Source: Schmidtea nova (lineage: Eukaryota). From it: DNA of 64,000 bases. The notes under the pieces are model-generated. The model saw only the letters and a list, made by a program, of their open reading frames with translations. It was not told the DNA's origin and did not search any database. The DNA lies in NCBI GenBank assembly GCA_044892505.1, contig CM097884.1, positions 7,874,001 to 7,938,000 of the forward strand, read 5' to 3'. The translations under genes were made by a program, and so were the position numbers. This document shows, piece by piece, positions 9,176 through 15,873 of the stretch; position 1 is the first letter of the stretch, and the number at the start of each line of letters is the position of its first letter.

Positions 9176-9554
9176 TTATAACATTGATTTCAACCATGCA
9201 AGGCAATGTTCACCACAAGTGATTGTTAAGGGATGCTGATACCGAATTCTATTATACACAATAGGTTTACCAATAGTTTGTAGTTTTCGAACAAGTAAAT
9301 TCGGATAATAATATCCAAATGGATCAAATACATGTATTCGATCTGGTTTCACATAAACTGCAATCCAATGTTCACCGCCCAACGTAGATGTCTGAGTATT
9401 TACAATGATGGCTTGATTCATTTTCAAATAAGGTATTTTATCCAGAGGAAATACTCCAATAAATTGATTTCCCAATAGTTTTTTACCTTGTTGTAATACC
9501 TGAAAAGAACTATTTAAAAAATAAATAACTAATCAATTAAAAATCTTACTCCAT
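9176..9554 (-). CDS. Adenain-like cysteine maturation protease (PRO), 112 aa after splicing
   Basis: GEHW, FDPFG, YQHPLTITCGEHC (His-Asp-Cys triad plus Gln). The track ORF starts at TTG; ATG GA|gtaaga...aaatag|T TCT (40-nt intron 9510-9549) restores MDSFQVLQQGKKLLGNQFIGVFPLD. Confidence 0.9.
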
Positions 9555-9623
9555 AATAATAATAATAAAAATAATAACTTTGATCATTTATACTGTTTGA
9601 ACTTAAACTAGTAATGTTTAAGC

Positions 9624-10844
9624 TCAGACCAGTATTGTTCTATTGGCAGTAATTTGAACTTCATTTTCAAAAACTCCATAAATAACTACATGAACCGGTT
9701 CATCAATAGGTTTGGCAAACTTTATATCGAGTCGTAAATTTCCGTTTTGAGGGATTTGGCTTTGATTCAAATCAAAATCGGGAGCCAGAACAAATGTAAA
9801 GAATGGATAACTAGATTTAAATTCATCTAGACCAATACCACAATTCAAGTTTTTATCCAAATAACCTAGATTTCGGACAAGACTTTGCATATATGATGCA
9901 CTAAAATTATCATTTTCAAAATCCTGGGTATATGTTTCACGATAATCGGTATTTTTCGACAATGTTAATGAAGTCACATTAAAATGTTTGAATGTAGATG
10001 TGGACTCGGTATAAGACCCATTATATTGATTTTCGGATTGAAAAGCCACAAGAATGAAATTAGGCATTCGTCTATCCCCAAATATCTGCTCCTTGTAAAA
10101 TGACGATGCCCCTTTACCGATTGCAAACGATACGATTTCTTTGGATTTTAATGGATAAATTGCATGTTTTTTATTTAAACCAATTTGATGACCGGCCAAT
10201 ACTGAAGAATCACATCGAACTCTTCTTACCATTAATTTTGCATCAACTATTTGGATAACTGGTTTTCCAGCTACCGATTTCAATGATAATGCAGAATCAG
10301 ATCTCTTCAATCTAATATGTACATTAACTCCGGGAAGTAAGTATTTAGGTTGATCCATAAAATCCAGTTGTAATGACGAACACATGTTGAAAAGTTTAGA
10401 TCCTTTAATCCATTTTTTCCGATCGTCAGCTGAACCATATCCCATTGGAGTAAGACATGTTTCTTTAGCATCATTCGTATAATTTAAAATAGTTTCGATT
10501 ATTGCCTTGTGTGCATATGTATTGTTTCCACCCTCGATTTTTATATTATTAAATCCGAGAATTACATCTTTGAAAAGTGTATGAAACAAATAATTATTGG
10601 GAACTACATCACTCGCATCGGCTAGAGCTTTTTTATCTTTATCTACAACTTTGATTGTAACGGACAATAATGTATCGTTCAAATCCAAATATTCGGTTTG
10701 AGAACCATTAATGTAAAATTCTACATCATTTCTACTATCTGTAATTGAATTCATTGGAAAAACATCTTCAAACACCCCATATTCAATAACTGCTTGAGGT
10801 GATGGTCGATCAAAAAGACATAATTCAGATTTACCGCAAATCAT
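9624..10844 (-). CDS. Major capsid protein (double jelly-roll, Polinton PY/hexon-like), 406 aa
   Basis: SELCLFDRP, VEFYING..EYLDLNDTLL, LDFMDQPKYLLPGVNVHIRLKRS, FNVTSLTL, GNLRLDIKFAKP..V.VVIYGVFEN motifs typical of Polinton MCP. Confidence 0.92.
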   Translation of the reverse strand: MICGKSELCLFDRPSPQAVIEYGVFEDVFPMNSITDSRNDVEFYINGSQTEYLDLNDTLLSVTIKVVDKDKKALADASDVVPNNYLFHTLFKDVILGFNNIKIEGGNNTYAHKAIIETILNYTNDAKETCLTPMGYGSADDRKKWIKGSKLFNMCSSLQLDFMDQPKYLLPGVNVHIRLKRSDSALSLKSVAGKPVIQIVDAKLMVRRVRCDSSVLAGHQIGLNKKHAIYPLKSKEIVSFAIGKGASSFYKEQIFGDRRMPNFILVAFQSENQYNGSYTESTSTFKHFNVTSLTLSKNTDYRETYTQDFENDNFSASYMQSLVRNLGYLDKNLNCGIGLDEFKSSYPFFTFVLAPDFDLNQSQIPQNGNLRLDIKFAKPIDEPVHVVIYGVFENEVQITANRTILV

Positions 10845-11224
10845 TCTTCAAATATAGTTCCATGACCTTTCATTCGTTTGTTTATACGCTTTCGTTTACG
10901 TCTTGGTCCTACCGGTACAGATTCCGGTTCCTTATTTTTTGTAAACATACTTGTAATTGTAGGAAGCATTTGAGTTACAGCAGGTATAGCTTTATTAACT
11001 GCGGCCAAAGCATTGGTTTTCAATGACGGTAATATTTTATTATCTTTCATGATAACATCCTTGGCAGTATTCATTCCGAAATTACCTAGTCGTCTAAGAA
11101 TTGGAAGTGCAAATCTCCCAATAGTTTTCAACCAACCTGATCCATACTGTTTACCGACAAAATACGGTAATTCGCCACCAGTTTGGCTATCACTGTACAT
11201 TGAAACTATATCGGGATTACTCAT
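10841..11224 (-). CDS. Polinton PZ-like virion protein with amphipathic helix and basic C-terminus
   Basis: QTGG.LPYFVGKQYGSGWLKTIGRFALPILRRLG; located between mCP and MCP. Confidence 0.7.
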   Translation of the reverse strand: MSNPDIVSMYSDSQTGGELPYFVGKQYGSGWLKTIGRFALPILRRLGNFGMNTAKDVIMKDNKILPSLKTNALAAVNKAIPAVTQMLPTITSMFTKNKEPESVPVGPRRKRKRINKRMKGHGTIFEE

Positions 11225-14483: not shown

Positions 14484-14576
14484 ATTTAAAAATTATATTT
14501 TCTTAATATTATTGTTTATATTTGTTTTAAATACCTGTTCTCAAAGTAATTATTTCATTTAAAAATATTTTCAGTA

Positions 14577-15044
14577 ATGATTAGAAACATTAATTACAAG
14601 GGTAAGACAGATGTATCACACATGAAATTTCCAAATGGAAAACCCCAGCAAATTGTTGATCGAAGTGGAAAATACCCAATAATATACTTTAAATCAGGAA
14701 GATATAGAATAATGGGATGCAGGGAATTTATTAGTGACGAACAAGTTGATTTTTACGATTTAAAGATACAATCGATAACTGTAACTGCGGATTTAGGATT
14801 TATTTGTAATTTGAATGAATTATCGAAATTAATACCGTGTGTTTACGAGCCAGAATTATTTCCAGCTTTGAGATATATCAAATATAATCCCATGTGTGTA
14901 AATATATTTGCAAGCGGAAAATTAGTCATATTAGGATTAAAAAACAAAGACTATAGTACTATAGTTGATGATATTATTTACGATATAAAATCAATTATAG
15001 AAGATAAAGCCTTTGTTGATTTCATACTAACATGTGACTCATGA
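14577..15044 (+). CDS. Divergent TATA-binding protein (TBP)-like protein encoded by the Polinton
   Basis: KIQSITVTADLGF...YEPELFPALRY...VNIFASGKLVILGLK matches TBP repeat 2 (KIQNIV.SCD..F...YEPELFPGLIY...LLIFVSGKVVLTGAK); a shortened repeat 1 ends IIYFKSGRYRIMGCR. Confidence 0.85.
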   Translation: MIRNINYKGKTDVSHMKFPNGKPQQIVDRSGKYPIIYFKSGRYRIMGCREFISDEQVDFYDLKIQSITVTADLGFICNLNELSKLIPCVYEPELFPALRYIKYNPMCVNIFASGKLVILGLKNKDYSTIVDDIIYDIKSIIEDKAFVDFILTCDS

Positions 15045-15219
15045 CTGCAATATCGATGCATTAGAAATGCACGATTCTGATTGGCTCTGTGTGTATCGAT
15101 AGAATAAAGACATGTTGTGCATGCTTCATTCTGATTGGTTCATTGTGTGTGTTTGAAATCATGTGTGTTTCTTTGATATATATACTATGAACAATCTCAC
15201 ATAGTTTATATTCACAATT

Positions 15220-15873
15220 ATGTCGATGACCCAAACACTAATTAAAAGCCGTAAGGATTTTAATTATTTATTTTTCATATTTTATATTATTATTATTTTA
15301 GATAAATTAATGAACGTTATCTATCGAAAGCTGGAGGAGCTATTCCCGAACCTGATGCCGGCTCTCGTCTACACGGCTCCGGAGATGTTCCCGTACAAGA
15401 TAATGGTCTTGACGGGAATAGATATAAACCAGATTGTGCTCGATCACATGACGAGCCAGAATACAGATCTCCCAATGGTACCCGAGCACATTATGTGCGC
15501 TTATCAATGCGGGAGCTGCGTGGAAAGAATCCGGCAGTTTAATATCTGGGTTTTGAGGAATTCCCTCAAACTCTATGATGTTCAACAAATGGACAAAATC
15601 GATGAAGAAAAGGAGGAGGAGGAACAAGTCAAGGAAACCTGGCCCAACTCTACTCCGGAGCCGACAGATGATGAAACAACAACAACAGATTTGGAAGCAC
15701 CAACTCTAGATGGTCCGTTTCCAACTGAATCATCTCAATCACCAGATTGTCAGGAATCACCTCAATCACCTGATTGTATGCAATGCCATCGAAAGGCTGA
15801 AGATTGTGATGGTGATAATAATAATAGTGATGATGGTTGCCAATCTCTTGGTGGCGAACCATCTGACATGTGA
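15220..15873 (+). CDS. Accessory protein with H-x2-C-x3-C-x2-C motif and acidic Ser-Pro tail; one in-frame intron
   Basis: Intron 15251-15301 (GTAAGG...TTTTAG, 51 nt) removes a hydrophobic AT-rich stretch; HIMCAYQCGSC; EEEKEEEE and SPDC repeats. Confidence 0.65.
   Translation: MSMTQTLIKSRKDFNYLFFIFYIIIILDKLMNVIYRKLEELFPNLMPALVYTAPEMFPYKIMVLTGIDINQIVLDHMTSQNTDLPMVPEHIMCAYQCGSCVERIRQFNIWVLRNSLKLYDVQQMDKIDEEKEEEEQVKETWPNSTPEPTDDETTTTDLEAPTLDGPFPTESSQSPDCQESPQSPDCMQCHRKAEDCDGDNNNSDDGCQSLGGEPSDM

Follow-up and report, generated by a model that had tools for sequence, protein, structure and literature searches.

Likely spliceosomal introns at inherited sites in core genes of an abundant Polinton/Maverick lineage

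Intact Mavericks of vertebrates are described as free of introns, in agreement with Kapitonov and Jurka 2006 (PMC8097293), and in nematode Mavericks the core genes are intronless and the cargo genes bear introns (bioRxiv 10.1101/2022.07.12.499685). Viral genes are assumed to be without introns (PMC9356565). Introners were found inside dinoflagellate Maverick/Polinton-like elements (PMC11957031), the animal transposon Ginger1 has a Gypsy-like integrase gene with one to four canonical introns (PMC2836005), and adenovirus pol and pTP receive their ATG from a 9-bp upstream exon (PMC5744146). Here, we analyzed a 64,000-nucleotide (nt) stretch of Schmidtea nova DNA (contig CM097884.1, positions 7,874,001 to 7,938,000; the window), which contains a full-length Polinton/Maverick element. 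We hold with good confidence that this element represents a lineage of about 10,000 copies, in which inherited GT-AG segments in the integrase, protease, polymerase and one accessory gene are probably constitutively spliced introns. The DNA shows directly where the segments lie, their splice-site ends and frames, their conservation and their copy numbers.

Integrase and protease introns

The two genes and their interruptions are as follows.

12887-13274, minus strand: integrase exon 1, with the ATG at 13274 and the first two catalytic Asp motifs (Pfam rve, 2.6e-8)
12847-12886, minus strand: integrase intron, 40 nt, phase 1, splitting the Gly codon of TDLG|KEF
12230-12846, minus strand: integrase exon 2, with the VERFNRT Glu motif and a chromodomain
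9550-9554, minus strand: protease coding exon 1, start codon plus 2 nt, with a TATA-like box about 35 nt upstream
9510-9549, minus strand: protease intron, 40 nt, phase 2
9176-9509, minus strand: protease exon 2, adenovirus-type cysteine protease (Pfam Peptidase_C5, 5.4e-6)

The integrase segment starts with GTAA, ends with TAG and has an interior GC content of 0.00. Its removal joins open frames of 136 and 204 codons in phase 1, and the unspliced frame meets a stop three codons after the junction. The interruption falls after the second Asp of the catalytic triad and before its Glu. The protease segment also begins with GTAA and ends with TAG (interior GC, 0.08). It sits after the ATG and two further nucleotides, and reading through it gives Met-Glu-stop. 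A 50-nt protease intron (9500-9549) was rejected because it breaks the frame from the ATG, and the upstream Met of 'MIKVIIFIIIIM' was rejected as the protease start because it is not conserved.

A first-pass annotation of the window had proposed 40-nt GT-AG introns at these two positions, the first of them splitting TDLG|KEF and carrying an in-frame stop. This was borne out by the ends and frames and by genome-wide counts. A degenerate pattern with GT..AG at the integrase site gave 10,440 matches and the protease-intron pattern 10,270, with 0 matches for either reversed control. The intron-free form of the integrase site matched at most 319 times (control, 0). With a tighter pattern for an intron-free protease start, 6 matches were obtained (control, 1), none near an element gene. 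At loci chosen by their integrase, the protease intron was present at 12 of 12 sites, 3 of them in a family with an intron-free integrase.

A 621-base integrase query yielded 1,920 candidates, of which 40 were scored, all at 100% rounded identity. The intron was identical in 29 of the 30 near-identical copies fetched and had a single substitution in the other. The integrase comparison set contained 37 distinct sequences (81 found, 45 long enough, duplicates merged). Identity to the window copy was 75-100% for intron-bearing integrases, 70-74% for the intron-free sister family and 39-40% for a distant family. A check of intron presence across related Polintons had been suggested, and the sites proved to be fixed in subfamilies whose integrases are as little as 75% identical to that of the window. 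The last 100 codons of integrase exon 1 showed purifying selection in all eight comparisons (ratio of nonsynonymous to synonymous rates, 0.05-0.18). The intron interiors were 0.57-0.71 identical in six diverged relatives, versus 0.61-0.66 for shuffles, and 0.92 identical in one close relative. The GT...AG ends are thus kept while the interior diverges and the spliced frame is collinear with homologues, as in a U2-type intron.

The first-pass annotation had also suggested comparing the two 40-nt introns for a shared origin. Their interiors have an identity of 0.67, equal to the shuffle mean of 0.67 and reached by 65% of 2,000 shuffles, and a common origin was rejected because the likeness is at shuffle level. 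For the same reason, these two introns do not look like introners, which are many near-identical introns at unrelated sites; host genes were not searched genome-wide in this respect. Four sequencing runs look like genomic DNA, with coverage in 30 of 30 bins and many subfamily variants. Among the best 15 of 271 read joints, none lies at the integrase intron, which has no bearing on splicing since the reads are genomic-like.

Polymerase leader and accessory-gene intron

The family B polymerase (PolB) gene had been annotated as intron-free, and four introns of 48-51 nt had been assigned to accessory genes. All four exist. Three of them, however, together with a 957-nt intron, form a chain that leads from an upstream ATG into the PolB frame.

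8320-8371, minus strand: predicted PolB exon 1, 52 nt, ATG at 8371, TATA-like box upstream
8269-8319, minus strand: predicted PolB intron 1, 51 nt, phase 1
8104-8151, minus strand: predicted PolB intron 2, 48 nt, phase 1
7958-8007, minus strand: predicted PolB intron 3, 50 nt, phase 1
6860-7816, minus strand: predicted PolB intron 4, 957 nt, phase 1, full of tandem repeats and overlooked in the first-pass annotation
2841-6859, minus strand: PolB main exon, 1338 codons, a Cys/His-rich N-terminal domain followed by the family B polymerase (Pfam DNA_pol_B_2, 1.8e-29)
15220-15250, plus strand: exon 1 of an accessory gene to which no function was assigned
15251-15301, plus strand: accessory-gene intron, 51 nt, phase 1, with its site shared by 10 of the 11 loci examined
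15302-15873, plus strand: accessory gene exon 2

From the ATG at 8371, leader exons of 52, 117, 96 and 141 nt alternate with introns of 51, 48, 50 and 957 nt. All four predicted introns are in phase 1, and the chain enters the 1338-codon frame, which assigns three of the four "accessory" introns to the polymerase. When the polymerases of nine elements were compared, similarity began at the AG acceptor in 9 of 9, about 18 residues ahead of the first Met. The residues Tyr3, Cys7, Ser9 and Cys15, upstream of this Met, are invariant in the nine elements, none of which offers an in-frame ATG without splicing. A phase-1 donor was found by script 371-1,467 nt upstream in eight of the nine, and the ninth has a GTAGG variant. 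The junction codon would read Cys in every case. A profile of the N-terminal domain retrieved 61 outside proteins, 40 of which aligned at the second Cys; in 38 of these 40 another Cys precedes it by 5-7 residues, in 16 with exactly the spacing of the window. Atlas matches for this domain are RING-like and below 0.9, a lead only. Genome-wide, the PolB acceptor pattern gave 8,567 matches (control, 8). The leader is of low complexity, differs between subfamilies and has 0-4 coding micro-introns by script. PolB is thereby predicted to be the most intron-rich gene of the element, with a putative five-exon mRNA.

Two neighboring PolB leader exons are near-duplicates at L117:7700-8300, which suggests that leaders may grow by duplication of phase-1 exons. 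In one subfamily (L110:1600-2680 and L111), the long polymerase intron contains an antisense gene with its own 45-nt intron. This gene resembles window positions 16394-16810.

Intron size, origin and alternative explanations

For comparison, host introns were predicted from 37 kinesin loci (three degraded copies were excluded, and L149 was dropped as a duplicate). A first list was too loose and was filtered to frame-breaking introns. Of the 73 retained, 53 are at most 70 nt long (median, 49 nt; mostly 41-57 nt; median GC, 0.25), and the four below 41 nt, which are rich in GC, are probably false calls. About ten host kinesin motor domains (L129-L138) lie in single open frames without introns. 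The element introns measure 37-54 nt, which accords with the predicted host range, as expected of U2-type introns, and are more AT-rich than the predicted host introns. The claim that they are sized like host introns therefore stands, and the nuclear expression by RNA polymerase II (Pol II) and long residence in this host that had been derived from it are supported. The emphasis on exactly 40 nt is not: both introns have this length in the window, but among the matches listed those of relatives measure 40-48 nt (integrase) and 37-40 nt (protease), and the agreement is a coincidence. Short integrase introns are rare genome-wide (90 of 32-38 nt and 16 of at most 31 nt), which points to a length floor near that of the host. 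In a host ankyrin-repeat gene of the window (47900-48500, minus strand), introns of 41, 47 and 81 nt had been reported. Frame-joining candidates were found for 47 nt (48345-48391) and 41 nt (47910-47950), and the 81-nt candidate overlaps one of 42 nt (48079-48120).

The host has an AT-rich animal genome of 1.25 Gb. Lower bounds on its site counts are 10,440 for the integrase, 10,270 for the protease and 8,567 for the polymerase. If most of these sites were elements of 17-18 kb, they would occupy up to about 15% of the 1.25 Gb, an upper bound, with many copies damaged. Four same-strand copies about 20 kb apart, with one common shortened integrase intron, form a tandem array (G000:C3 135177776-135236613). 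The sister family with the intron-free integrase keeps the protease intron. Its copies L123-L125 and L103 are foldbacks, in which ATPase, integrase, penton and capsid genes are mirrored around the protease gene with arms 99.4-100% identical. No polymerase match was found in 30 kb of L123-L125. A second intron-free integrase family, 39-40% identical to the window copy (the L037-L060 type, e.g., L044 and L105-L108), had no capsid or ATPase match in the 40 kb examined and is perhaps a Ginger-like transposon.

In a tree of 21 rows, the integrases of the host genome form one clade (support, 100/98) nested among intron-free outside proteins. The unbroken motif [ST]DxGxEF is present in 99 of 120 outside homologues, and the other 21 did not fit the regular expression. 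A metagenome scan for the intron-bearing integrase motif gave a single match (L179), which was judged to be chance, as tblastn detected no element gene there. Viral contigs searched with the capsid query contained no relative. On the simplest reading of these sequences, the integrase intron would have been gained within the host lineage, and the sister family either lost it or never had it. At the corresponding position the sister has G|GTAAAG already, and in many copies GTAA opens both the intron and exon 2. Duplication or insertion at a proto-splice site would be consistent with this and is perhaps the origin.

We propose that host Pol II would transcribe the element from TATA-like promoters and that the host spliceosome would remove the introns. 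The polymerase mRNA would then have five exons, the last junction supplying the first Cys of the conserved Cys/His domain. An intron-free ancestor would have settled in the host lineage and gained its introns there, that of the integrase perhaps through duplication or insertion at a G|GTAA proto-site. Intron length would be held at the size of short host introns. The introns would have persisted because the element is copied as DNA, without a reverse-transcription step that removes introns precisely. A benefit of the introns to expression is possible.

Several points weigh against this proposal. Splicing is likely but predicted from the DNA. The sizes of host introns were also predicted, from kinesin genes, and some of these calls are visibly false. 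A script favoring long chains linked the leader micro-introns; two of the three in the window are multiples of 3 without stops, so that their retention would keep the frame. Met 19 of the PolB frame is invariant in 9 of 9 elements as well, which makes a shorter product possible. The outside integrase homologues were single frames of 358-2000 amino acids, mostly from gene callers unable to call introns. This set is thus biased to intron-free genes, and the gain of the integrase intron leans on it. The intron-bearing integrase branch has a support of 85/76 in the 21-row tree and of 94 in a quick 69-row tree, and a position of the intron-free sister inside this branch was not rejected (p-AU 0.08 and 0.25). 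The resemblance behind the proto-site origin is one between AT-rich sequences.

Selection of the introns as host camouflage or as expression boosters is a less likely possibility and is compatible with constitutive splicing. Spliced RNA would evade silencing and be better exported, and the lineage would expand to about 10,000 copies. In line with this, intron-bearing integrase sites outnumber intron-free ones by at least 33 to 1 (10,440 versus 319), the intron-free sister copies examined are foldbacks or degraded, the protease intron stands right behind the start codon, and the element has stronger donors and more AT-rich interiors than the predicted host introns. In human cells, intronless elements are silenced by HUSH (PMC8770142), and Polintons are PIWI targets in a planarian (PMC8532177). 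However, the comparison involves a single sister, which itself retains the protease intron; the capsid, penton, ATPase and TBP-like genes manage without introns; and surveillance of intronless RNA, known from human cells, would have to be extended to this host by analogy. Doubtful, in our view, is the broader account in which the Maverick enzyme genes became host-like spliced genes with TATA promoters and their own TBP-like factor. They would have escaped silencing of intronless RNA and hence reached about 10,000 copies and up to about one-seventh of the genome, and the polymerase would have gained an evolvable N-terminal leader from duplicated phase-1 micro-exons.

It had also been proposed that splicing gates integration. 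The part that stands is that the integrase depends on splicing; neither a conserved internal element nor a weak site was detected that would suggest a regulated switch. The P element is a precedent for a regulated splicing switch. If the integrase and protease introns were switches of this kind, their retention would give an integrase without the third catalytic residue and a two-residue protease, and integration would be confined to some cells. The unspliced reading does truncate both proteins, and a conserved second AG, 10 nt into protease exon 2, would shift the frame. This AG falls in conserved Ser-x-Gln codons, though, the donors are near consensus, the intron interiors are not conserved beyond composition, and breaking the frame is the norm among short introns. 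We therefore regard regulated switching as improbable.

Very improbable is a third alternative, in which the multi-exon unit at 8371-7817 would be an accessory gene of its own, with PolB translated from Met 19 of the large frame. All nine elements have this Met, the leader peptides are of low complexity and unalike between subfamilies, L110 and L111 carry a whole antisense gene in the interval, and the last leader exon of the window also meets a stop 8 codons past its donor. Against a separate gene, the four invariant residues upstream of the Met have no unspliced ATG, and the donor, phase and Cys junction codon are kept in all nine elements, the Cys also in the outside homologues (38/40). The first-pass annotation had named private insertions in this copy as an outcome that would speak against it. 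The idea of private or inactivating insertions in dead copies is refuted: it has nothing in its favor beyond the stops that the segments cause, whereas the integrase and protease introns are common to more than 10,000 sites in many subfamilies, with exons under purifying selection.

Gene set of the element and comparison with known systems

The remaining features of the element are the following.

192-18283 (18.1 kb): full-length Polinton/Maverick, ends AGTAGGTAG ... CTACCTACT, with the 6-bp target-site duplication ATTGCT on both sides
192-1380 (about 1.2 kb): left terminal inverted repeat, followed by a stretch of N
17114-18283: right terminal inverted repeat
9624-10844, minus strand: major capsid protein, no intron (Atlas, 0.98 to clusters with the PF21738 double jelly-roll-like domain)
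11217-12260, minus strand: probable minor capsid (penton) gene, no intron, named from its position alone
13860-14483, minus strand: packaging ATPase, no intron (Pfam Pox_A32, 6.1e-7)
14577-15044, plus strand: TBP-like gene, no intron (Pfam TBP, 1.1e-13; PDB TBP, 1.4e-17)

The element is a member of the Polinton/Maverick group. It has long terminal inverted repeats with AG...CT ends, whose left arms (191-367, 283-625 and 729-1380) show 85-95% complementarity to the right end, and is flanked by the 6-bp duplication ATTGCT. It also has an rve integrase, an adenovirus-like cysteine protease (PF00770), a packaging ATPase (PF04665) and a family B polymerase, for which PF03175 (DNA_pol_B_2) matched the C-terminal 819 amino acids at 1.8e-29, with no such match from the whole frame. 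A wholly intronless set of core genes, a reported Maverick trait that is not part of the definition, is not seen here.

The capsid, penton, ATPase and TBP-like genes are single open frames in the window and are continuous by tblastn in undamaged relatives, in accordance with the first annotation of the capsid and ATPase genes as intron-free. A loose scan for more introns at 18 loci was noisy and gave no convincing one in structural genes. A 29-nt intron ahead of the TBP-like gene was rejected, as its splice sites are not kept in relatives. The Atlas match of the capsid (0.98) covers 225-230 of 256 features, and PF21738 is present on 15-30% of the cluster members; no sequence match was found for the capsid in Pfam, PHROG or PDB. 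The penton-like gene is conserved at the usual place, yet it had no family match in domain searches. In one subfamily it is tandemly duplicated (L109:6856-8890 and L112:679-2707). The TBP-like gene was found in every intron-bearing subfamily examined, and TATA-like boxes lie upstream of several element genes. At 16877-17458 (plus strand), a gene encoding a predicted signal peptide and a hydrophobic segment extends into the right terminal repeat. A gag-like reading frame continues on either side of the element (33-191 and 18284-19352), which appears to be inserted into it.

Our literature search found no description of inherited introns in the core genes of animal Mavericks; subscription papers, Repbase and supplements may hold one. 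The accessible text of PMC10748475, PMC6431247, PMC8502044, PMC11161782, PMC12220804 and 10.64898/2026.01.28.702291 mentions no spliceosomal introns in Polinton core genes. An intron-bearing integrase, protease and polymerase in a Maverick is thus new relative to the accessible literature, within a known group. Because open frames without introns are the criterion by which intact Mavericks are recognized and assessed, such a lineage would be scored as broken and its three enzyme genes misannotated. About 10,000 copies, many subfamilies and a sister with an intron-free integrase in one genome are a rare natural series, which bears on how new introns arise and become fixed and on whether introns shield mobile DNA from silencing. 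Questions of intron gain and benefit become testable in this lineage through its large copy number, its intron-free sister and the predicted splicing of its polymerase leader. Essential genes with introns of host size would make the element dependent on nuclear transcription, and might restrict the hosts in which it is able to spread.

Adenovirus pol/pTP and IVa2 (PMC5744146) resemble the PolB leader and the protease mini-exon of the window in that a small upstream exon supplies the start codon. Adenoviruses, however, are free viruses, and their long alternative splicing proceeds from shared leaders; the likeness is functional, with no homology claimed. Ginger1 (PMC2836005) likewise has an intron-interrupted Gypsy-like integrase gene; unlike the window element, it has one gene, moves by cut and paste and lacks polymerase and capsid genes. 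The dinoflagellate introner elements (PMC11957031) share spliceosomal-type introns inside full-length Polinton-like elements. Their introners are mobile repeats, mostly inserted after integration, whereas the introns described here are at fixed inherited sites, those of the integrase and protease being mutually unrelated. Closest are the animal Polintons/Mavericks of the adintovirus type (PMC8097293, 10.1101/2022.07.12.499685, PMC10748475), with the same terminal inverted repeats, 6-bp target-site duplication, protein-primed PolB, rve integrase with chromodomain, C5 protease, packaging ATPase and double jelly-roll capsid. In contrast to the vertebrate and nematode Mavericks, the window element has a TBP-like gene, and the dominant lineage that it represents has conserved introns in its integrase, protease and polymerase genes.

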